From an uncultured bacterium (GTDB taxonomy: Bacteria; Desulfobacterota; GWC2-55-46; JAJCZF01): a DNA stretch of 64,000 bases. Below the pieces are notes generated by a model that saw only the letters and a list, made by a program, of their open reading frames with translations, did not search any database and was not told the DNA's origin. The stretch is taken from the NCBI GenBank assembly GCA_965372515.1, contig CBDVCO010000001.1, forward strand, positions 686 to 64,685. Direction: 5' to 3'. The position numbers and the translations under genes are program-made. Each line of letters starts with the position of its first letter. Positions within the stretch are counted from its first letter, which is position 1. Shown in pieces: positions 27,282 to 50,498 of the stretch.

Positions 27282-29390
27282 ATGACCTCGATGCCTGACA
27301 AGTACAACGCCCCCGACATTATCAAGGCGCTCTTTATCGTCATAGTGACATTTGTCGTATATATCCGGGCCATCCATGGCGGTTTTATATGGGACGATCA
27401 GACTTTTATCGTAGAGAACAGGTTCCTCCTCGACCTTGACGGGCTTTGGTCCATCTGGTTCACCACCGACCTCTCACACCAGTACTACCCGCTTGCTTCA
27501 ACCATCTTCTGGATAGAACGCCACATATTCGGCCTGAATCCAATTGGATATCACACTTTAAATATCGCCCTTCACTCTATAAACGCCCTGCTCGTTTGGG
27601 TCGCATGCCGAAGGCTAAAGCTTGGCGGGGCCTACGCTATCGCTCTGATCTTCTCACTCCACCCGGTGCACATAGACAGCGTGGCCTTTGTAAATGAAAT
27701 GAAGAACCTCGTCTCAGGGCTCTTCTACCTCTTGGCGCTCTTAAGCTTCCTCACCTTTGAAGAGAAAGGCTCAAAACGCTGGTACGCGCTCACGCTCCTT
27801 GCATTCGTATTAGCGCTTCTCAGTAAGACCGTCGCCGGCACCCTGCCGGCCGCGCTCTTGATAATACGCTGGATGAGACATAAAGATATAGGCCCCGGCT
27901 ACATCCTGAGGCTTGTACCGTTCTTTATTATAGCCGCCGCCTTCGCCGTTGTGACAATAGCCGTTGAGGTGGAAAATACCGGAGTGGATATCGGCATCAG
28001 CTTTGCACAGAGGCTGCTTGTAGCAGGGCGCGCCTCCTGGTTCTACGCGACGAAGCTTATATATCCAATGAAGCTCTCATTTATCTACCCGCGCTTTACT
28101 CCCGATATCACGAGCTTAACCCAATGGGCCTACCCGCTCGGGGTCGTGGCCCTAACGCTTCTACTCTTTGGCTTAAGAAAGAGGCTCACTCGCGCGCCTG
28201 TGGCCGCCGTAGCCTTTTTTCTCGTTACCATCTTCCCGGCCCTGGGCTTTGTCGACATAAACTTCTTTAACTACTCTTACGTAGCCGACCACTTCCAGTA
28301 TCTGGCCAGCCTTGCGCTCATAGCGCTCGCAGTCGGTGTTATTTGCCGCCTGATCAAAAACCTGCCAGGGCCCGTAGCTTACATAACGGCAATCTCAATA
28401 GTCTTTATCCTTGGAGTGCTTACCTTGAGCCGCTTAAGCGTGACCACGAACCACGAATTGCTCTGGAGGGATACCATAAAAAAGAACCCCGCGTCATGGG
28501 CGGCACACAACAATTTCGGCAATCTCCTCTTCGCCCAAAAACGCATACCGGAATCTATAAAAGAGTTTCAAATGTCGATCAGCATAAACCCCTACAGTGA
28601 GAAAGCCAGAGGCAACCTCGCTAACGCCTTGACCGAGACCGGCCGCTTTGATGAAGCGATAGACCAGTACGAAGCGGCGCTAAGGATAACCCCGGACAAT
28701 CCGCTCACGCTTATTAATATCGGCATAAATTACACACTGCAAAACAAATTCGAAGAGGCCGTCCGGAAATTCGAGCGCTCCATAGAGCTAAACCCTTATG
28801 ATTCATACGCTTTTTATAACTACGCACTGGCGCTTACGGGGCTAAATAGAGCAATTGATGCTGAGCGCGCCTATCTAAAGGCCATAGAGCTAAACCCCGC
28901 GGATACGGATTCAAGAAATAACCTGGCCAATATATACATGGACAAAAATGACCTTGACCGGGCTATGGCGCTCTACACTGAGGTGATAGAACTGCTCCCG
29001 ACCCACGCCCGGGCCAATAATAACCTCGGCATTATCATGAGCATAAGAAAAGAATACGAATTAAGCCTCTCCTACTTTGAGGTGGCCATAAAAGCTGACC
29101 CGGAATATGCCGATGCCCATTATAACTTCGCGATAACGCTTGAAGATATCGGCAGGCATAAAGAGGCCCTGGAAAAATACCAGGCGGTCTTAAGGCTTGA
29201 ACCGGACCACGCTGAAACAAATAATAATATCGGCTCCATCCTCTTAAAAGAGGGCGATCACCAGGCAGCGAAAGGATATTTTCAACAAGCGCTAAGGCTA
29301 GACCCGTCAAGCCCGATATACAAAAAGAACCTGGAGATCGCAGATAAACTCACCAGGGGCGACAGGGCCCGCGGCCTTAAAAGGCATTAA
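27282..29390 (+). CDS. TMTC/PMT-like GT-C glycosyltransferase-fold membrane domain (DUF1736-like) fused to C-terminal TPR repeats, 702 aa.
   Basis: About 11 TM N-domain with a loop-1 acidic motif (GGFIWDDQTF), then at least 8 TPR repeats. Paralogue of 41417..43525. Confidence 0.6.
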   Translation: MTSMPDKYNAPDIIKALFIVIVTFVVYIRAIHGGFIWDDQTFIVENRFLLDLDGLWSIWFTTDLSHQYYPLASTIFWIERHIFGLNPIGYHTLNIALHSINALLVWVACRRLKLGGAYAIALIFSLHPVHIDSVAFVNEMKNLVSGLFYLLALLSFLTFEEKGSKRWYALTLLAFVLALLSKTVAGTLPAALLIIRWMRHKDIGPGYILRLVPFFIIAAAFAVVTIAVEVENTGVDIGISFAQRLLVAGRASWFYATKLIYPMKLSFIYPRFTPDITSLTQWAYPLGVVALTLLLFGLRKRLTRAPVAAVAFFLVTIFPALGFVDINFFNYSYVADHFQYLASLALIALAVGVICRLIKNLPGPVAYITAISIVFILGVLTLSRLSVTTNHELLWRDTIKKNPASWAAHNNFGNLLFAQKRIPESIKEFQMSISINPYSEKARGNLANALTETGRFDEAIDQYEAALRITPDNPLTLINIGINYTLQNKFEEAVRKFERSIELNPYDSYAFYNYALALTGLNRAIDAERAYLKAIELNPADTDSRNNLANIYMDKNDLDRAMALYTEVIELLPTHARANNNLGIIMSIRKEYELSLSYFEVAIKADPEYADAHYNFAITLEDIGRHKEALEKYQAVLRLEPDHAETNNNIGSILLKEGDHQAAKGYFQQALRLDPSSPIYKKNLEIADKLTRGDRARGLKRH

Positions 29391-39301: not shown

Positions 39302-41284
39302 ATGCTCAACTTCAAGAACATACGGACATCTCTCGATTACGCATATTCCAGCCTATCCTCCAGAATACTGTTGTGTGGAGCTATCCTACTCTTAGTCATC
39401 CTGTTTAAACCAACTCTGTCATATAGCCGTTTAGCGCCCTTAGACCCGCGTGATCCGTATATACATAGAACATTGACCCTGGACGTGGGCTTTAATTTTA
39501 GGACCTCTTCATCCAAAATAGGAGACTTTCAGTCAAAACGAAGATGGAGCTTCGGCGAAAGCTATAAAGTATCTATACGCGGCAGCGTGATCGACCCGAG
39601 ATTTATGGTCTACGACTATTATACGTTTTATTCTCAAAGCCGGAATTCCACCAATCAAACTGGGAGCAATCTTGGCCTGGGTATAAAATCAACCATTTTC
39701 AGAAAGTTCAGATTTCCGGTTACCTTATATGAATACCGCTTTTATGGCAAAGATGTAATCAGAGATTCGTTCGGTGCCAGATCGCTCTTAAGGTTCAGGA
39801 GACTTCCTACTACCAGACTAAGAGCAAATTATGACAGGACGGAAACCGACACCAATATCTCCTTCAATTCAAACTATCAATTGAAGATGGATAAGAATAT
39901 TGGTCCAACATCTAATACGTTGAATTACGCTTATTCTATAAATGACAATGGCGCTACGCAATCTAATCTTGCCATAACCAATGGAACGCGTTTATCGCGA
40001 GCCACAAAAATGAACGCCGTTCTAGCTCATAATGTGGCCACTCCATCTGATATATCGGACGAGGACAAAACAAGTACAGGATTTACAATGTCGCTAGTGT
40101 CCAGGACGAGCGATGACTTCAGGCAGTTACACCAATATGCGGCCTACTCAAGCGAAACCACTTCGACTGAAGGAACCGTGACTGTCGATGGACAAAGCTA
40201 CAACGGAGGATGGAATTTTGCATTACTAAAAAATCTATCTACAGGCGGAGGAATATCCGTTTCAGAGAGTAATTCTCATGGCATCTCCAGTGAGAGCACT
40301 TCAGAAAGTTTTTCTGCACACTGGAACCTGAATTATACCATTACCAGGGGACTATCCCTTGTATGGGACTCATCATATCGAAGCACTCGTTCAAGTATTA
40401 TCTCGATATCGACCGACGAATCGAGCAGCGAGTATTTCAATACCAACATGGGCGTTACGTACTCTAGACGGATTCGCTCCGCCTCATTCTCATCAAGTTA
40501 TAGGGTCGGCTATGTTGAAGAGCTCTCCCTGCCTCTTAATGGCGGAGGAACAGGACTACGTCAGGGGATTAGTTTAGGTCTAGGCAACCTACATTATAAA
40601 AAAGTCTACGTCAATACCTCGTACAATGCAAGCCGCGTTGACGTTCTGACTGGCGACATCTGGTCCACATCACAATCCCTATCCGTTACAGCAACACCAA
40701 GATACTGGACAAAATATGGAAGCATAGGCTCTTCATATAGATTCAGAACCTCTAGGAACTGGCGTAACCCTGAAGCGGTCTCATCACATAATTTAAACTT
40801 TAATGCCAGGAGCAGAGAAATAAGAAGGACAAGAGGATCTGCAAGCCAGAACTTTTCAATAGAAAAGTCCGGTCATTTAAGCGATTCTACAAATAAAATA
40901 AGTTCTTCCAGGCTTTCCATTTCTCACAACAGAACAGTCATGGGAGGAAAAACTCAACTTTCTTTCTTAATCAATTATCGCAAGCACGAGCATGGAAGGG
41001 CTCTTAACAAGCGTATAGATGCAAGATTCAAAGCGGGGTACTTTAGGCCACTTTTTAGGCGCGTCGCTTGGCGTTCCTATTTCGACTACTCTAGAGGCAA
41101 AGACCTTAGCAATAACACAAGCCATTCCGATACGAGCTTCGCAAACACTCTCGCATACAATCTAAGGAGTTGGAGCATTTTTGCGGAGCATCAAATTACA
41201 CATTCTTCAAGCAAGCATACCGCTACTATTATTAAAGAACAATTTATGTTAATCTTAAAAAGATCTTTCGTCAGGGGATTCTGA
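39302..41284 (+). CDS. Putative large outer-membrane beta-barrel protein, Ser/Thr/Asn/Arg/Tyr-rich, 660 aa.
   Basis: Signal-like N-terminus. Pervasive alternating hydrophobic/polar beta-strand pattern. C-terminal Phe (VRGF) typical of an OMP beta-signal. Confidence 0.45.
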   Translation: MLNFKNIRTSLDYAYSSLSSRILLCGAILLLVILFKPTLSYSRLAPLDPRDPYIHRTLTLDVGFNFRTSSSKIGDFQSKRRWSFGESYKVSIRGSVIDPRFMVYDYYTFYSQSRNSTNQTGSNLGLGIKSTIFRKFRFPVTLYEYRFYGKDVIRDSFGARSLLRFRRLPTTRLRANYDRTETDTNISFNSNYQLKMDKNIGPTSNTLNYAYSINDNGATQSNLAITNGTRLSRATKMNAVLAHNVATPSDISDEDKTSTGFTMSLVSRTSDDFRQLHQYAAYSSETTSTEGTVTVDGQSYNGGWNFALLKNLSTGGGISVSESNSHGISSESTSESFSAHWNLNYTITRGLSLVWDSSYRSTRSSIISISTDESSSEYFNTNMGVTYSRRIRSASFSSSYRVGYVEELSLPLNGGGTGLRQGISLGLGNLHYKKVYVNTSYNASRVDVLTGDIWSTSQSLSVTATPRYWTKYGSIGSSYRFRTSRNWRNPEAVSSHNLNFNARSREIRRTRGSASQNFSIEKSGHLSDSTNKISSSRLSISHNRTVMGGKTQLSFLINYRKHEHGRALNKRIDARFKAGYFRPLFRRVAWRSYFDYSRGKDLSNNTSHSDTSFANTLAYNLRSWSIFAEHQITHSSSKHTATIIKEQFMLILKRSFVRGF

Positions 41285-41416: not shown

Positions 41417-43525
41417 TTACCTTCCGGATCTTCCAATGGATTTTGCTCTATTTAGCCTGGCTTTAGCCTCTCTGTAGTCTGGATCGATCTCAAGGACCTT
41501 CTCGAAACTCTCGATTGCCGCCTCGAACTCGCCACTGTCTAAATATATAAGACCCAGATTAAAGTACGCGTCAGGCCCTTTGGGATCAACCATAACTGTC
41601 TCCTTATAGTAGCGCTCGGCCAGGCGAATATCACCGACATAGTGATAGACCCAGGCAAGGCCGTAAAGCGCCCTTGCGTTCTTTGGTTCAAGTCTCACGG
41701 CCTCTTTAAAAGAATTGATCGCACTCTGGTTATCCCCTACCTCCTGAAAACTCCATGCAAGATTATAGTGGGCAATACTACTAAAGGGATTTAACTCTAC
41801 TGCCTCTTTATAAAAACCAAGAGCGGCGGCCGGATTTCCGCTCTGCTTATAGGCCTGGGCGAGGTTGCCCCTGGCCCTCTCGTTTAATGGATTTACACGG
41901 ATTGTCTCCTTATAAAAATGAATCGCCTTCTCAACATCCCCTGCCTGATCATAAATAACCGCAAGGTTAAAAAAGGCCTTGTCGTTTAACGGATTTAATC
42001 TGATTGTCTTCTCATAGTAAGCCGCTGCATTCAATTGATCGTCCATATCATTATAAATAAGAGCCAGGTTATAGTACGGTTTATAGTTAAAGGGCTCAAG
42101 CCTGACGACCCGTTTATAGTACTCGATAGCCTCCTCGTTATCTCCCTGCTCGCGAAAAGCCGCCGCCAGACCCAGATTTACTATCGCGCTTTCAGGGGCC
42201 GAGTTTACCGTATCGGACCAAAGGCTCATGGAGTCCGTCCATACCATACTCCTCCTCACAGTAAAGACTCCGTATAGGGCAAAAATTGCGAGCAAAACAA
42301 TCAAGACGGCCTTTCGCCTCTCTGCGGCTCTCAAAAAAATGGCATGAAATATCACGGCGACTATCATGGCGAACCCGGCCGATGGCAGATAGAGATACCT
42401 GTCGGCAAAGCCGCCCGTCGAAACTACCGGTATATAGAGTACCGGCAGGAGCGGAATAATGATCCATAAAATAGGGAAGAATACGGCGGCCCTTCGCCTG
42501 AACGCCACAAGGAGCAAGCAAATAACAACCATTACCGCTATAGAGAGTAAGACCATAGGCTCGAAGAGCGAATAAAAAGGTTCAAGGACGTAGATGACGC
42601 TTAAGTTAGCGGGCCATAGGAGTTTGCCCATATAACGCAGGATTGCAGGAAAGATATTCACCATGGATCCATAAAGCCCGGTACCGGCCATCTCCTTTTG
42701 CGCAAACCCTCCAAGGGCATATGTACGAAGCACCATATAAATTACAGCCGCAAGAATATATGGGATATAGGTAAGATAGCGCTTTATGAAGGAGCGCCCT
42801 TTTGTCGAGAAGTCATAGCACCAGATAATGAGCAAAAAAGCCATGGCCGTCTCTTTACTGAGGAGCGCTATAAAGAAGAGGATAACAGAGAGAATCGTCC
42901 ATAGGGTTCTGCCCCTTAAGAACGCGTTCAGGTCGAGCCTTATGTATATATAGAAGGCCGCCAGAAGAAAGAGCGTGTATAGAAGCTCCGGAAGAGCAGA
43001 GACCCAGTTGACCACCTCGCTGTTAATGGGGTGAAGCGCGAAGATCAGGGCGGCAACAAAGGCCCAGTACGTAGCGCTTGAAGAGTGCGCCCTCTCAAGT
43101 GCAGCCTCTAGCTCCCCTTCCTGTTCCCCTTCGGACTTGTTCACCCCAAAGCCCATGGACCTAAAGAGCGTCGAGACGACGAGAAAGACGAAAAGGCTGT
43201 TCAGGGAGTGTAGGATAATATTTAAGAGATGAAAAACCACCGGGTAAAAACCGAAAAGATGATACTCGGCCAGAAATACCAGATGCATCACGGGCCTATA
43301 ATAATTTGACCCTGCCGTCTCCTTCATAAACGACCAGGAGGCGGAGAAGAAAATATCACCAAGATGCGCCGTATCGACGATCCAGGGATTGCCGAGCACC
43401 TGCTCCATATCGTCGTATACAAAGCCGTGAAATAGTGTCGGCAGATATACGATACAAGTTACTAGAAAGAGCGTAGCGAACAAAACGTATCCAACGCTCT
43501 TCTTGTGAGTTGGCAATATAGCCAT
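41417..43525 (-). CDS. Second TMTC/PMT-like GT-C membrane domain plus TPR protein, also 702 aa. Paralogue of 27282..29390.
   Basis: Same architecture (HGFVYDDMEQV loop motif, multi-TM, C-terminal TPRs). Confidence 0.6.
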   Translation of the reverse strand: MAILPTHKKSVGYVLFATLFLVTCIVYLPTLFHGFVYDDMEQVLGNPWIVDTAHLGDIFFSASWSFMKETAGSNYYRPVMHLVFLAEYHLFGFYPVVFHLLNIILHSLNSLFVFLVVSTLFRSMGFGVNKSEGEQEGELEAALERAHSSSATYWAFVAALIFALHPINSEVVNWVSALPELLYTLFLLAAFYIYIRLDLNAFLRGRTLWTILSVILFFIALLSKETAMAFLLIIWCYDFSTKGRSFIKRYLTYIPYILAAVIYMVLRTYALGGFAQKEMAGTGLYGSMVNIFPAILRYMGKLLWPANLSVIYVLEPFYSLFEPMVLLSIAVMVVICLLLVAFRRRAAVFFPILWIIIPLLPVLYIPVVSTGGFADRYLYLPSAGFAMIVAVIFHAIFLRAAERRKAVLIVLLAIFALYGVFTVRRSMVWTDSMSLWSDTVNSAPESAIVNLGLAAAFREQGDNEEAIEYYKRVVRLEPFNYKPYYNLALIYNDMDDQLNAAAYYEKTIRLNPLNDKAFFNLAVIYDQAGDVEKAIHFYKETIRVNPLNERARGNLAQAYKQSGNPAAALGFYKEAVELNPFSSIAHYNLAWSFQEVGDNQSAINSFKEAVRLEPKNARALYGLAWVYHYVGDIRLAERYYKETVMVDPKGPDAYFNLGLIYLDSGEFEAAIESFEKVLEIDPDYREAKARLNRAKSIGRSGR

Positions 43526-43686
43526 CTTCTGAGCCTTAAATAATGAGAACGAATTGTTAAATAGGCATAATTAAAGGATTTCCCCTGCAAGGCCTACATC
43601 ATTGGACATTTTAACTCAATTAAGGAGGAATTTTCAAGGCCAAGCATCTACTTGATTTAATTCGTATTTTGCTATAGACTGTATCC

Positions 43687-46422
43687 ATGCTTACCTCCTA
43701 CAACAATGACAAGATATCGCTATTTGCCCCCCTAATAAAGAACAGGGAAGTTTTCCTGAGCGGTATGCCATGGCTACTGGATCCCGCAAAAATTCGCTTC
43801 AAGCTCGGTGAGACCCTCAAGGATCTCAAAGTGCCCTACCACATGGGCAAAGAGGATGAAGCTATTATTGGTAATGCCATCACGAGCCTCGTCTCCCTCT
43901 TACAAACGCGCTATCAAAAGGACTCCCCTGAGGCCGGAAAGAAGAAGCAGAGCACATTCAGCTCAACCCCCACAACAAAGAGCGAACCCCTGATGGATAC
44001 GACCTACTGGCTAGGAGTATTCAAGCAGGATTCTCTCGAGATGAGTCTCGCCAAAGATATACTTCGTACAACACCATTGATTGACAGCGCGATTCTCAAG
44101 CAATGGCTCGATAAGAACGGTAAGGGCGGAAAACTACTTCAATGGACAATGACAATCCTTGAAAAAGCACTTTGCGAGGAAGCAGGAGATGAAAGCGGAG
44201 AGATGACCTCATACATGGTGCTACTGGCCATAATTACGACCATTGTCAAGAAGAAGGAACGGATAAAGGATTTTACAATCAAGGGCGCTTCGCTTGAAAG
44301 GATAGACGTAGCGACCGGTTCCACACTCTTTATGACCATTAAAGCCGCGGTGGAAGAACTCTTTAAAAAGATCAAGACCTCCGAGTCGATCTACTGCAAC
44401 CCGGCGACCGAATCTATTCTTAAAAGCACGGTTATCCCCGAGTCATTCCTGCTGATACCCAGCGTACTCCTTAGTAACTCGCTGAATCCATACGGGATAA
44501 GGAATGAGACGGCTGAGATCATATCCGCGTACACACCCGAGACCAGCCAGTGGCCTGATGATGTCGAAAAACTCATAAATAAATCTTTTAAACAACTCAC
44601 AGGAAATAAGAAGGACAAACAAAAGCTCTGGACTTACTGTCTGATCACCAAGTTCAGGGAGCATATAATAAACTATCTCATGCAATACGACCTGCCGGGC
44701 ACAAAAGGGCACGAGTTATTCTACGACCTCTATCGTGAGGATCGTCATATGCATATACTCGACCCCAAGACGCTCGACTCTTTAAGCTCTCTTTTGGACG
44801 AGTTTACGGACAAATACGGGAAGGATCAGGAAAGGATTGAGAAATTTACTTTATTAAAACACCTGATTGAAATATTAAGAAGTGAAAAAACCATGGCAAA
44901 GGAAGCCAAATCAAAACAAGGCGCCCAGATCATATCCGACATGGTCAGGGGTTTCATAGCTTACAAACTGGACTCACATGCCTCTCAATTCATAGGCGCT
45001 TCGAGAGGGGCCCTCGTTAACAGGCGCGAGAAATACACCGGCGACCTTCTTTTGGAAGAATTCAAAAATGGCAGACTATACAGGTTTTCAAGCGACCGCA
45101 GGGAGATTCTCTGCGGGCTGACCATCAAACAAGAGGGTCAACTTATCATCGACATGAAGGATTTCACAAAAAAGACCTTGAAATTAAAAGAGATCGCAAT
45201 GGCCGACTTTATGAAAGAGAATTTTTATGAACCGATACTAAACGAGGCAAAGAAATACGGGATCGATAAGGGGCTTGTTGACAAAGATGCCGGCATTACC
45301 CTTAACGGCTTGCCTGGAGACGCCGCAATATTCTCAGGCGGCGTCGGCAACCTGATCTCTCTTGCAGAGGATATAAGCAAGGTTATCAAAGACTACCGCG
45401 AGAAGGTAAAAGAGAAATTTCTGCCAAAGCTTGACAAACACATCCAGACGATACATGAAAGATACCTGAGCCAACAGAAACGGGAGGCAGAGGAGAAGGA
45501 AGACTTGAGGGAGTTGATCGGTCTTGATGACAGCCTCGTCTCGCTTGATGACGCAGAGGATATGGTCGAACAAATCACGCGCGATGAGTTGGAAGCCACT
45601 ATCACCGAGGAGATGGATGCCGGCCTCTTCATCTCTTACGGCGTAAAAGCTGAGACAATGCTACTAGAGACTAAAGACGGGACTAATGAGCCTCCCGTCA
45701 AGGTAGCTATCGGCGAGAAGATCAACGAGTCCAGCAGGGGAACGGACCGGAACCTTGCCGTCATGAATAAGAGCGCCGCGCTCCTGGAGGAGGAGAAGCA
45801 TCAAAGAAGTAACGATAGCTTAATCAATCCTTTTGAGGTCCACATAGACAAGATATTCAATATTCGCATACCTGCTGAAATTGAAAATATGCTTGGAAAA
45901 GAATTTCGTGGAGAGGCCAAACACGACACTTCCGAGCTTATCGAAAAGCTTATGGATGAATATTCAAACGACCTTGAAAAAATACGTCAGGATATGCCGC
46001 CTGACTCACTTAAGGCCCTTCACATAAGAACGCAGCTTTACAACAAGGGTCACGCCCTATCCAAAGAAGCGCTCAACGCCTATATAAGAGAGGCGACCGG
46101 CAGGAAGTTCTTCTTTAAAAAAGAACTTCCTGTCACAGATCTTTCGCCAGCCATACAAGAAAATTTCTATTTCCCACGGAATATAAATGAGTTCTGGTTC
46201 AGCGTGGAGGTAAAAAAGGGCGTTGAAAAGGTCGAGCTCTTCTCCAGGGTCGGAGAGATGGTCTTCAAGGGTTTTGAATCCTCTCCGCCGACCGAAATCT
46301 ACGAGATCATCGATCGGGACGGAGAGTTCTTTAAGGCAATTTTAAACGATCACTTCAACGGTTGGTTCAAGGAGGCTCAAAAGGCCGCTAACGTCAAATA
46401 CGAAACCCCGGCCGAGAAATAA
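43687..46422 (+). CDS. Large (911 aa) cytoplasmic hypothetical protein, K/E-rich, with cryptic class-III nucleotidyl-cyclase-like motifs in the central region.
   Basis: No signal peptide or TM helices. Motif series IIDMKDFT ... LPGDAAIFSGG ... GEKINESSR parallels FxDIxGFT / IGDAYM / GDTVNxASR of adenylyl/guanylyl cyclase catalytic (CHD) domains. The region has lower GC than its neighbours. Confidence 0.5.
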   Translation: MLTSYNNDKISLFAPLIKNREVFLSGMPWLLDPAKIRFKLGETLKDLKVPYHMGKEDEAIIGNAITSLVSLLQTRYQKDSPEAGKKKQSTFSSTPTTKSEPLMDTTYWLGVFKQDSLEMSLAKDILRTTPLIDSAILKQWLDKNGKGGKLLQWTMTILEKALCEEAGDESGEMTSYMVLLAIITTIVKKKERIKDFTIKGASLERIDVATGSTLFMTIKAAVEELFKKIKTSESIYCNPATESILKSTVIPESFLLIPSVLLSNSLNPYGIRNETAEIISAYTPETSQWPDDVEKLINKSFKQLTGNKKDKQKLWTYCLITKFREHIINYLMQYDLPGTKGHELFYDLYREDRHMHILDPKTLDSLSSLLDEFTDKYGKDQERIEKFTLLKHLIEILRSEKTMAKEAKSKQGAQIISDMVRGFIAYKLDSHASQFIGASRGALVNRREKYTGDLLLEEFKNGRLYRFSSDRREILCGLTIKQEGQLIIDMKDFTKKTLKLKEIAMADFMKENFYEPILNEAKKYGIDKGLVDKDAGITLNGLPGDAAIFSGGVGNLISLAEDISKVIKDYREKVKEKFLPKLDKHIQTIHERYLSQQKREAEEKEDLRELIGLDDSLVSLDDAEDMVEQITRDELEATITEEMDAGLFISYGVKAETMLLETKDGTNEPPVKVAIGEKINESSRGTDRNLAVMNKSAALLEEEKHQRSNDSLINPFEVHIDKIFNIRIPAEIENMLGKEFRGEAKHDTSELIEKLMDEYSNDLEKIRQDMPPDSLKALHIRTQLYNKGHALSKEALNAYIREATGRKFFFKKELPVTDLSPAIQENFYFPRNINEFWFSVEVKKGVEKVELFSRVGEMVFKGFESSPPTEIYEIIDRDGEFFKAILNDHFNGWFKEAQKAANVKYETPAEK

Positions 46423-46428
46423 AGAGTC

Positions 46429-47322
46429 CTATCCCTCTCCTTCTGAAATATTCAAGACCTCGTTCATACTTCCGGTGCGGAAACCCTGAAGATCAAGGGT
46501 GATATATACAAAGCCGATACGCTTAAAACTCTCGACTATCTCCCTTCTAATATCATCCTTCATCATGCCCGCGATCTCCGCAGGACCCACCTCGATCCTG
46601 GCCGTCTCCCCGTGATACCTGACCCTGAACTCTTTAAAACCGAGCGCCTTGATAACGCCTTCACATTCGCTGACAAGCTTAAGCCGCTCTTCTGTTATCC
46701 GGGTTCCATAGGGAAAACGTGACGAGAGGCACGCTAGCGCAGGCTTATCCCAGGAGCTTACGCCGAGATATCGGCCAAGCTCGCGCAACTCATCCTTAGT
46801 AAGACCGGCCTCAACGAGCGGACTCCTTACCTCCAACTCTTTAGCGGCCTCCATGCCGGGACGATAATCCGTGAGATCGTCCACATTGGTCCCGTCGGCC
46901 ACGAAGGTGAGCCCCCTCTCCCCTGCCCTCGCCTTACAGATCTTAAAGAGTTCGCTCTTGCAATGGTAGCAACGCGACGGCGAATTCTCAGCGAAATTCT
47001 CTATCTCAAGCTCATTTGACTCTACGATAATATGATCTACTTGAATATTTGCGGCAAAGAGTTTCGCCTCTTCGAGTTCACTTTCAAGATATGTAGGGCT
47101 CGTGGCGGTAAGTGCCGAAACTTTGCCTTTAAGCGTAAGCGCGGCAACGTGGAGGAGAAACCCCGAGTCAACGCCGCCTGAGAAGGCGACAAGAAGAGAG
47201 CCCATCTCATTAATAATTCGTCTTAGATACTCGAGCTTGCCTAAAAGCTCCTTTGAAGGTGTCTCCTGATGGACCGTTTCACAACGCGCAACGTGAGCCC
47301 CGCTCTCCTTATTTGTCAGCAT
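46429..47322 (-). CDS. larE: LarE-like PP-loop ATP pyrophosphatase (TIGR00268-type, putative sulfur transferase).
   Basis: SGGVDS PP-loop and LarE-family pattern. Confidence 0.6.
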   Translation of the reverse strand: MLTNKESGAHVARCETVHQETPSKELLGKLEYLRRIINEMGSLLVAFSGGVDSGFLLHVAALTLKGKVSALTATSPTYLESELEEAKLFAANIQVDHIIVESNELEIENFAENSPSRCYHCKSELFKICKARAGERGLTFVADGTNVDDLTDYRPGMEAAKELEVRSPLVEAGLTKDELRELGRYLGVSSWDKPALACLSSRFPYGTRITEERLKLVSECEGVIKALGFKEFRVRYHGETARIEVGPAEIAGMMKDDIRREIVESFKRIGFVYITLDLQGFRTGSMNEVLNISEGEG

Positions 47323-48416
47323 ACATTATACTCCATGATCTCACTCTCACTCTCGCTCTCCTTGCCACTGTGAATGTTGTCGACAAGCTCCACCTCTTTT
47401 GTCTCTTCGCCACATGTAATACGCACCCTGGGCTCAACGCCAGCCTTGGAGGCGCTGTAGCGAATGAGCAGATCGAAAACGAAACGTGCCGTAGCCTCGT
47501 CCCCATTCCAATCCCCATCCAATGGACCGCAGACAACGGCATTCGGGCCCGGAAAGTTCACAGGCTCTATAAGGCTCTCACCCTCTTGAACGAGATTGGT
47601 GAGTCTGAGATTATCGGCCTTGTCCCTGCCGATAACCACCTTCGTACCATTAAAACGAAAGTGCCTACCGGTCTTCAGCATCTGCAGGTCCTTAGTAGTG
47701 ACCGTCTCCTTGTGGTCGAGTAAGTCCCTCACCTTCTTTGAGAATATCTTATCGGTAAGGAGACACCCCCCAGACGGGCACGGGTAGTCGTCTATATCCA
47801 GCTCGTCCGCTTTATCCATTATGGGTCTTCTTCCCCTGCCCGCGACATCCATGAGTTTTTCTCTATCGACCAGCCCCTCTTTTTCAGGAACGGTCTCTTC
47901 GAGATTGAGCGCGCACAGAGGCCTCAAGATCAAACCCTCAAGGCCGCTCTCACGTTCGATAGTTGCAAAATTGGCCCTCCTCTGGCTCATGGGCCTTTGC
48001 CCGACGACCTCACCCGTTATCACGAAAGAGGCCCCTATCTCCTCCATATAACGCCTGGCCGAGCGGAACATAAATATGCGGCAATCGACACAGGGGTTTA
48101 TCCCTTTGCCGTAGCCGTACTTGGGGTTCCTTACGATGTCGATATATTCAGGGCCCTTATTGATAACCTTGATAGGAACGCCGAACTTTTCACTAACCAG
48201 CCTTGCCTGCCCCTTACAGCCCGCCTGCTCACCCTGGATATGGCCGGAGGCGAGCGCTATCACCTCTCCCGCACCCTTCTTCTTTGCCCCTGAATCGCAG
48301 GTACAAAAAGCGGAAGTAAAGTTCAGGGCATATACCTCTATGCCCTGGTCTATCATAAGCTTCACGGCAAGCGTTGAGTCGAGCCCGCCGGAAAGTAGTG
48401 CTATTGCCTTAGTCAT
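47316..48416 (-). CDS. ThiI-like PP-loop ATPase (tRNA-thiolation-type adenylation domain without a THUMP domain).
   Basis: LSGGLDS PP-loop and NPCVDCR...ITGEVVGQRPMSQ resemble the ThiI AANH domain. Overlaps the larE-like gene by 7 nt. Confidence 0.6.
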   Translation of the reverse strand: MTKAIALLSGGLDSTLAVKLMIDQGIEVYALNFTSAFCTCDSGAKKKGAGEVIALASGHIQGEQAGCKGQARLVSEKFGVPIKVINKGPEYIDIVRNPKYGYGKGINPCVDCRIFMFRSARRYMEEIGASFVITGEVVGQRPMSQRRANFATIERESGLEGLILRPLCALNLEETVPEKEGLVDREKLMDVAGRGRRPIMDKADELDIDDYPCPSGGCLLTDKIFSKKVRDLLDHKETVTTKDLQMLKTGRHFRFNGTKVVIGRDKADNLRLTNLVQEGESLIEPVNFPGPNAVVCGPLDGDWNGDEATARFVFDLLIRYSASKAGVEPRVRITCGEETKEVELVDNIHSGKESESESEIMEYNVC

Positions 48417-49468: not shown

Positions 49469-49717
49469 ATGAGCGAAACGAAAAAATTTAACGAAGAGAG
49501 CCTCTCTGATTTCGACGGCACCGACCCGGATAAGCCTGCCTATATAGCCTATAAAGGAAAGGTCTACGACGTGACCGGCAACCCGCTTTTTGTAGACGGG
49601 CTCCACTTCGAGCATACGGCAGGCATGGACCTGACAGAGGATATGGAAGAGGCCCCGCACACGGACGAGGTCATGGAAGAACTCACTGTGGTTGGCGAAT
49701 ACACAGAGGACGACTGA
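49469..49717 (+). CDS. Small cytochrome-b5-like heme/steroid-binding domain protein.
   Basis: FDGTD...YIAYKGKVYDVTG...H..G.DLT matches the cyt-b5-like domain pattern, with an acidic C-terminal tail. Confidence 0.5.
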   Translation: MSETKKFNEESLSDFDGTDPDKPAYIAYKGKVYDVTGNPLFVDGLHFEHTAGMDLTEDMEEAPHTDEVMEELTVVGEYTEDD

Positions 49718-49727
49718 GGGTACGGCT

Positions 49728-50498
49728 ATGAAAGTCCGTATACTCGGCTCTGGCACTTCCACCGGCGTTCCGGTAATAGGCTGTACGTGCAGTGCGTGTA
49801 CTTCCACCCATCCCGGCAACAAGAGGAGCAGGTCGAGCATAGCCGTTGAGTTTTCCAATAGTACCATCCTCATCGACACATCCACCGACTTGAGAATGCA
49901 AGCGCTCTCGAGCGGCCTTAAAAGGGTCGACGCCGTTTTATACACCCACTATCACGCCGACCATATCCACGGGATAGACGACCTGAGGTCTTATAACCGC
50001 CTGCAGAATGAAGAGACGATCCCCTGCTACGGAGATAAAGATACAATAGAGAGGATCCGTCGTTCCTTTGAATATATATTCGCTACAAGTGGAAGCAAAC
50101 ATGAGGGCGGATGGAAGCCCAACCTCAAAACAGTTGTAATAGAGGCTCCCTTCTCTCTCTTCGATCATGAGATCATTCCCATTAAAATAGAACACGGACC
50201 AAGATCGATCCTCGGCTATCGCTTTGAGAATTTCGCTTACCTGACCGACTGTAGCGGCATCCCCCCCGAGAGCATGGAGCTCCTTAAAGGCACAGAGGTA
50301 CTCATTATCGGAGCGCTCCGGCAAAGGCCCCACCCCTCGCACTTCAGCATCGGGCAGGCCATCGAGGCCTCTGTTGAGATCGGCGCAAAGAGAACGATAC
50401 TTACCCACCTGGGCCACGCCGTTGACTTTGAGGCCGTAAGCCCGACACTGCCGGACGGGGTAGAGCTTGCCCGCGACTCCATGGTGATAGAGCTTTAA
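49728..50498 (+). CDS. MBL-fold metallo-hydrolase (PhnP/GPMC-like).
   Basis: HYHADHIHG metal-binding motif. Start at MKVRILGSG preferred over 49692. Confidence 0.65.
   Translation: MKVRILGSGTSTGVPVIGCTCSACTSTHPGNKRSRSSIAVEFSNSTILIDTSTDLRMQALSSGLKRVDAVLYTHYHADHIHGIDDLRSYNRLQNEETIPCYGDKDTIERIRRSFEYIFATSGSKHEGGWKPNLKTVVIEAPFSLFDHEIIPIKIEHGPRSILGYRFENFAYLTDCSGIPPESMELLKGTEVLIIGALRQRPHPSHFSIGQAIEASVEIGAKRTILTHLGHAVDFEAVSPTLPDGVELARDSMVIEL

Follow-up and report, generated by a model that had tools for sequence, protein, structure and literature searches.

A 64,000-nucleotide (nt) stretch from an uncultured Desulfobacterota bacterium (assembly GCA_965372515.1, contig CBDVCO010000001.1), called the window below, carries a gene for a 911-amino-acid (aa) protein. 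We read this gene, with fair rather than full confidence, as encoding a cytosolic, chromosomally fixed and very divergent class III-type nucleotidyl cyclase of an undescribed family. The conservation of the catalytic residues is observed directly, and predicted structures point to the fold of a cyclase-homology domain (CHD). The product of the protein is probably a signalling nucleotide, the identity of which is not yet predictable. An earlier note, made from the DNA letters only, had suggested either a divergent signalling cyclase or a single-protein defence or stress effector with a cyclic nucleoside monophosphate (cNMP) synthase core, of the kind that Pycsar-type systems use.

The gene itself is intact:

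43687..46422, + strand: complete open reading frame (ORF) of 911 aa plus stop codon, with an ATG start and an N-terminus aligned with those of its homologues.

Lysine and glutamate make up 20.3% of the protein, which agrees with its earlier description as K/E-rich. Since the highest Kyte-Doolittle score over 19 residues is 1.58, it has no convincing predicted transmembrane helix, again as described before.

Three cyclase-like motifs carry the argument: IIDMKDFT (aa 487-494, nt 45145-45168), GLPGDAAIFSGG (aa 541-552, nt 45307-45342) and GEKINESSR (aa 676-684, nt 45712-45738). The earlier note had lined these up with the metal-binding and transition-state motifs of CHDs, and they prove to be real. 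Conservation was counted across 89 relatives sharing 18-86% identity with the query, and the key residues are near-invariant. As the three motifs are the most conserved stretches of the family, their occurrence is, at the sequence level, far beyond chance. The residues with proposed catalytic roles are as follows:

D489: proposed metal-binding Asp 1, present in 88/88 relatives.
D545: proposed metal-binding Asp 2, present in 84/89 relatives.
N680: proposed transition-state or ribose contact, present in 80/89 relatives.
R684: proposed transition-state residue, present in 82/89 relatives.
K/R861: proposed gamma-phosphate contact, present in 82/89 relatives.

In addition, G544 is found in 85 of the 89. 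Class III cyclases carry two metal-binding aspartates, at the end of beta1 and in the beta2-beta3 turn, and D489 and D545 supply both. The transition-state Asn/Arg pair on helix alpha4 and the lysine of the beta7-beta8 hairpin are present as well, with the gamma-phosphate role of K861 proposed from motif and structure reasoning.

Alignment to known cyclases places the motifs in the same way. A CHD profile was built from six sequences (three verified in the PDB and three validated by Pfam), and hhalign aligned the family to it with P=2e-4, which puts D489 and G544-D545 at the positions of the two metal-Asp motifs. Smith-Waterman comparison of the N-terminal half of the domain, with its insertion deleted, gave z-scores of 5.2 against CyaB and 4.3 against CyaC, with D..FT, GD and IGxxxNxxSR aligned and IGEKINESSR paired with IGREVNLASR of CyaB. 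Neither the C-terminal 206 residues alone nor an N-terminal control segment reached significance in this comparison. The helix motif VAIGEKINESSRG is identical to TAIGPSVNIAARL of CyaC at 7 of 13 residues.

A full-length AlphaFold2 model, based on 23 sequences, shows a confident all-helical part (aa 1-445), a low-confidence middle and a confident alpha/beta C-terminal part. When aa 445-911 were remodelled from a set of 89 diverse relatives, the mean predicted local distance difference test (pLDDT) score rose to 90.2 and the predicted TM-score (pTM) to 0.87. In this model, D489 ends beta1, G544-D545 lie at the beta2-beta3 turn, and N680 and R684 sit on a short helix after beta5, the elements on which a CHD carries these motifs. 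The earlier note had named a structure prediction lacking any such fold as grounds for abandoning its reading; instead, the best Foldseek TM-score was obtained with the cyclase Rv1900c (TMt 0.75). The architecture predicted for the protein is listed below:

43687..45021, + strand: all-helical N-terminal domain, aa 1-445, specific to the family; its role as a regulatory or sensor module is putative.
45070..45096, + strand: conserved GRLYRFSSD linker, aa 462-470, just ahead of beta1; its role is putative.
45118..45384, + strand: CHD segment A, aa 478-566 (beta1-alpha1-alpha2-beta2-beta3-alpha3), with D489 (IIDMKDFT) and D545 (GLPGDAA), placed by the model, hhalign and Smith-Waterman.
45385..45606, + strand: insertion 1, aa ~567-640, a predicted antiparallel hairpin of long helices, K/E-rich and varying in length among relatives, from the model and alignments.
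45607..45756, + strand: CHD segment B, aa 641-690 (beta4-beta5 and helix alpha4), with N680 and R684 (VAIGEKINESSRG), from the CyaC/CyaB alignment and conservation.
45757..46017, + strand: insertion 2, aa ~691-777, helix-strand-helix-helix after alpha4, with boundaries estimated from the model.
46018..46326, + strand: CHD segment C, aa 778-880 (beta6-alpha5, YNKGHALSKEAL; beta7-beta8 hairpin with K861, FKGFESSPPTEIYEII; extra strands).
46327..46419, + strand: C-terminal helix, aa 881-911 (model helix 880-906).

Within the linker, G462 is invariant and Y465 is present in 87 of 89 relatives. Insertion 1 comprises model helices 553-611 and 620-640 and is variable and gapped in the alignments, with lysine plus glutamate reaching 26.7% over aa 553-642. 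The elements of insertion 2 (H690-707, E718-726, H730-740 and H748-767) are modelled with pLDDT >90. In segment C, YNKGxALSxEAL and FKGFExxxPTxVYEIL resemble the beta6-alpha5 and beta7-beta8 motifs of CHDs, and they hold the invariant G788 and G856 and the near-invariant N786 and E873.

We infer in part that the CHD spans aa ~478-880 and is split by the two insertions. This delimitation follows from these C-terminal CHD-like motifs and from the Foldseek alignment lengths: the 403-column alignment with Rv1900c equals the length of 478-880, and alignments of ~210 columns (TMt ~0.5) fit the length of 478-690. In a variant of this layout, aa 700-905 would form a separate subdomain instead of completing the CHD. 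As that part alone showed no significant similarity to CHD profiles, the variant is a possible alternative.

The family to which the protein belongs is sizeable. The earlier note had called it an orphan, a description that no longer applies: a word-indexed search returned 27 relatives of ~905-915 aa with identities down to 25%, and 1.84 billion cluster representatives, searched exhaustively with a profile, yielded 272 relatives at E<=1e-3, 156 of them at E<=1e-30. Full-length members among those listed are mostly 800-1040 aa long. Among the 27 relatives, Pfam domains are absent throughout and every name given is 'hypothetical protein', so that the annotation of homologues to another family, which the earlier note had said would count against it, did not occur. 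Ten of the most divergent members are likewise without a Pfam match. A scan of one genome per GTDB species gave 77 loci, all in metagenome-assembled genomes, labelled Deltaproteobacteria or Thermodesulfobacteriota except for a few labelled only 'bacterium', Proteobacteria or Myxococcia/Myxococcales. Both Myxococcia/Myxococcales loci are among the most distant ones (25-29% identity). Literature searches found no description of the family, and the 911-aa protein is a member of an undescribed one.

Sequence models do not recognize this family. The whole protein gave nothing credible in Pfam, NCBIfam, PADLOC or the PDB (phmmer and profile searches), and weak matches to exopolyphosphatase, SUMO and RecX (E 0.04-0.4) were dismissed as noise. 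In the same library, three canonical cyclase domains used as a control scored 197-226 bits on PF00211, the class III cyclase model, whose gathering score the 911-aa protein does not reach. Ten distant full-length relatives had no PF00211 match at E<=0.01. A core-only family profile, from which the helical hairpin had been removed, found nothing in the PDB or Pfam, and a homologue search with it returned only fragments of the family and no bridge to canonical cyclases.

Several of these results weigh against a cyclase. PF00211 does not match the whole protein at E<=1 or any of 28 insertion-deleted cores at E<=10, and profile searches of the PDB, including the core-only profile, recovered no cyclases. 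The hhalign probability of the family-CHD match is only 47%, and profile comparison of the C-terminal third with CHDs gave no significant similarity, so the proposed completion of the fold by aa 778-880 draws on the predicted structure and the alignment lengths. The canonical substrate-specifying pair is missing, and non-canonical residues at these positions also occur in non-catalytic CHD-like proteins. The gene has no demonstrable link to a cNMP receptor or a phosphodiesterase, and all members of the family come from uncultured organisms.

The base-selecting positions deserve separate mention. Canonical cyclases use Lys/Asp or Lys/Thr pairs for ATP and Glu/Cys-type pairs for GTP. In this family, aa 541, four residues before D545, is Asn in 66, Ser in 11 and Gly in 7 of the 89 relatives, and aa 673, seven residues before N680, is Val in 80 and Ile in 7. 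Because these residues are non-canonical, the nucleotide used cannot be read from the sequence.

In a rival reading, the CHD-like domain would bind a nucleotide, or nothing at all, and serve as a regulatory or scaffold module without cyclization. Precedents for such pseudo-cyclases reportedly include AdvA/DUF4175 of Acinetobacter and the class III adenylyl cyclase (AC)-like ATP-binding domain of a Pseudomonas aeruginosa regulator. We regard this reading as unlikely, though it deserves to be kept in mind: the conserved catalytic set disfavours it (compare AdvA, PMC13060281), and the hallmark of AdvA/DUF4175, a CHD-like fold that lacks both the AC/guanylyl cyclase catalytic residues and the dimerization arm, is not what the family displays. 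It is improbable that the protein is a palm-domain enzyme with different chemistry, whether a di-/oligonucleotide cyclase or nucleotidyltransferase (GGDEF or Cas10-like) or a GTP cyclohydrolase III-like hydrolase. Structural scores to such enzymes are lower, CHD-specific motifs are present, and the mark of GGDEF diguanylate cyclases, a GG[DE]EF hairpin motif together with a best structural match to GGDEF domains, is missing.

The defence function raised in the earlier note would make the protein a Pycsar-type anti-phage cyclase that senses infection and makes cCMP or cUMP to switch on an effector, either encoded away from the locus or built into the N-terminal domain of the protein itself. Pycsar is a two-gene operon of cyclase and effector found in defence islands. 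The protein does resemble the PycC cCMP/cUMP synthases (7r65, 8jsz, 8jsf) in its CHD fold, its non-purine-type specificity residues and its cytosolic nature. It differs from them in that it has no adjacent co-transcribed effector, transmembrane or TIR, and no match to the PADLOC defence-system models, and in that its structural scores to PycC are below those to purine cyclases. Moreover, it occupies a stable position among housekeeping genes, with the same slot kept in 46 of 62 informative loci, rather than a patchy, island-like distribution. A Pycsar role is therefore very improbable, and of the two functions proposed earlier the signalling cyclase is the better match. The outcomes that the earlier note had named as fatal to its view were all examined, and each favoured the core interpretation.

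The closest known proteins to this divergent cyclase are the bacterial CHDs of PF00211, for example P. aeruginosa CyaB (3r5g), Synechocystis Cya2 (2w01), S. platensis CyaC (1wc1) and M. tuberculosis Rv1900c (1ybt). In the predicted structures, the family clearly shares their fold and catalytic residues. It is set apart from them by several features. In contrast to canonical CHDs, it goes undetected by PF00211 and by PDB sequence profiles; its domain is predicted to be split by a ~75-residue helical hairpin and a ~90-residue alpha/beta insert; its base-selecting pair is Asn/Ser/Gly with Val/Ile instead of Lys/Asp(Thr) or Glu/Cys; and it is fused to a new N-terminal helical domain of its own (445 aa), not to a known sensor. 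Two other bacterial families, DUF2652 (Ramakrishnan et al. 2016, PMC4886424) and AdvA/DUF4175 (PMC13060281; PDB 7sua), are cryptic in the same sense, with a cyclase-like or CHD-like fold missed by routine annotation and recognized only by remote-homology or structural methods. Both are different proteins from the family described here.

If the protein acts like other CHDs, it would form a head-to-tail dimer with two-metal catalysis, as its fold and conserved residues suggest. D489 and D545 would coordinate two Mg2+/Mn2+ ions, helix alpha4 would contribute N680 and R684 to position the ribose and stabilize the transition state, and K861 would bind the gamma-phosphate. The 3'-OH of the nucleoside triphosphate would then attack the alpha-phosphate, yielding a 3',5'-cyclic nucleotide and pyrophosphate. 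Control of activity or dimerization may fall to the helical N-terminal domain, to the GRLYRFSxD linker and possibly also to the hairpin. What we infer here about dimerization, catalysis, product and signalling role draws on established knowledge of CHD enzymes. Given the stable position among housekeeping genes, a role in second-messenger signalling would be favoured over mobile anti-phage defence.

The neighbours of the gene are listed below:

41417-43525, - strand: tetratricopeptide repeat (TPR) protein of 702 aa, the divergent upstream neighbour.
46429-47322, - strand: LarE-family PP-loop sulfur transferase (sacrificial) of 297 aa, convergent (TIGR00268, 312 bits).
47316-48416, - strand: ThiI-like PP-loop protein of 366 aa with an NFACT-R_2 RNA-binding domain, convergent.
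49692-50498, + strand: metallo-beta-lactamase (MBL)-fold hydrolase (NF038231, 'GPMC system MBL fold metallohydrolase', 344 bits against a 360-bit cutoff).

An M50 peptidase and the MBL hydrolase come after the ThiI-like gene. The wider region encodes multihaem cytochromes, TPR/PMT_2 and FGE-sulfatase-like proteins, an NtrB/NtrC-type pair, a TMP-TENI family protein (thiamine monophosphate synthase family) and an ammonium transporter, and Rfam and tRNA scans of the window came back empty. The window is ordinary chromosomal content. In GC content, the gene has 46.3% and the window 50.2%, and the upstream flank at 39-41.5 kb is lower still (42-44%), so the composition of the gene is not island-like. 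The earlier remark that the region is AT-richer than its flanks is marginally true against the window and fails for the upstream flank.

The convergent pair of LarE-like and ThiI-like genes lies downstream in 46 of the 62 loci with >=2.5 kb of flank (L001, L003, L005 and L007 among them, in our numbering). The cyclase-like proteins that share this slot are only 35-45% identical, whereas the LarE-like and ThiI-like proteins are 56-65% identical. This association may reflect either functional linkage or inherited synteny. De novo clustering of the neighbours of 83 loci revealed no conserved co-directional partner, in agreement with the earlier observation that no effector gene is adjacent. The stable synteny and the lack of such a partner suggest that the gene behaves as a vertically inherited, monocistronic chromosomal gene.

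In 31-35 loci the MBL hydrolase is syntenic with the cyclase-like gene, lying ~3-5 kb beyond it on the downstream side, and it is a possible cNMP-degrading partner. Its highest-scoring model is the GPMC-system one listed above. When rescanned, it matched Apyc1 only at E 0.0075-0.027 and scored 24 bits on the NCBIfam cyclic-nucleotide phosphodiesterase model, against a 400-bit cutoff. No other GPMC-system families were found near it, and a literature search on GPMC returned nothing. One homologue of the hydrolase bears a precomputed Anti-Pycsar Apyc1 entry.

A link to glycogen metabolism was also considered and dropped: such genes lie co-directionally and directly downstream in two loci (L002 10794-12254 and L006 7254-8987; one has a GT5 glycogen synthase, GlgA, and the other a GH57 branching enzyme), and this was not general in the 83 loci. 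In the window itself, no glycogen-metabolism gene directly follows the cyclase-like gene. Further upstream, a 660-aa ORF (39302-41284, + strand) has no Pfam, NCBIfam or PADLOC match; in 12-18 loci the cyclase-like gene has a relative of this ORF (23-28% identity) upstream, often beside FGE-sulfatase-like genes. The ORFs at 27282-29390 (+ strand) and 41417-43525 (- strand) are both 702 aa long and rich in C-terminal TPR repeats, the former also with a PMT_2 glycosyltransferase-like region at its N-terminus. The two may be paralogues, placed on either side of a block of cytochrome, NHL-repeat, SurA-like and FGE-sulfatase-like genes.

Directly in front of the gene, the promoter-like arrangement described in the earlier note can be read at the following positions:

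43652..43657, + strand: -35-like hexamer TTGATT, within a conserved cTTGATTTA, recurring in homologous loci.
43673..43678, + strand: -10-like hexamer TATAGA, separated by 15 nt from the -35-like box and by 8 nt from the ATG, recurring in homologous loci.

A generic sigma-70 scan did not report this site, because its 15-nt spacer and final A fall outside the rules of the scan. Translation cannot begin further upstream, since an in-frame TAG stands at 43675-43677. No Shine-Dalgarno (SD)-like tetramer precedes the ATG at 43687, including the stretch between TATAGA and the ATG. An AAGGAGG lies at 43622-43628 (+ strand), in the 161-nt divergent intergenic region, and, as had been noted, it lacks a downstream start codon at a spacing suited to ribosome binding: the sole one between it and the ATG of the gene is a TTG at 43652, which at 23 nt away is too far. 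In L001, the closest relative, the corresponding position is occupied by AAAGAGG.

Among 71 homologous loci with an intact 5' end, the arrangement TTGATT-N15-17-TATAnn-N6-13-ATG occurs in 10, compared with a chance expectation of ~0.7 for TTGATT alone in those windows, and any SD-like tetramer is present in only 13. With a -10-like box 6-13 nt before the ATG, the predicted transcription start coincides with the start codon or lies very close to it. This comparison supports a leaderless or near-leaderless mRNA for the TTGATT/TATA subset of loci, as the earlier note had suggested for the single gene. In the mechanism outlined above, the gene would be transcribed alone and, in part of the family, from this conserved ATG-abutting promoter. 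Many loci without an ATG-adjacent TTGATT...TATA carry a conserved TATAAGCT or TATAAACT ~40-55 nt upstream (e.g., L007, L016, L023, L027, L037 and L075), mostly without an SD-like sequence. The TATAAGCT/TATAAACT element may be a second promoter configuration for the gene family. With its predicted, conserved promoter abutting the start codon, the family provides a concise comparative example of how leaderless translation may work in this lineage.

cAMP and cGMP are produced chiefly by class III cyclases, in bacteria as in eukaryotes, and surveys of these enzymes lean on sequence models of the PF00211 type. Such models wholly miss the conserved family described here, which comprises roughly 270 clusters at 50% identity and yet keeps the full catalytic machinery in a split domain behind a 445-residue helical module. 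Its unusual specificity residues could mean that the messenger is neither cAMP nor cGMP, and a bolder proposal, to which we give only a small chance, is that the protein is an active cyclase making a cyclic pyrimidine or another modified cyclic nucleotide for housekeeping signalling in a whole uncultured clade of Thermodesulfobacteriota, gated by the new helical sensor domain and the inserted hairpin. If active, the family would represent a hidden branch of cyclic-nucleotide signalling in abundant uncultured deltaproteobacteria of groundwater and sediment.

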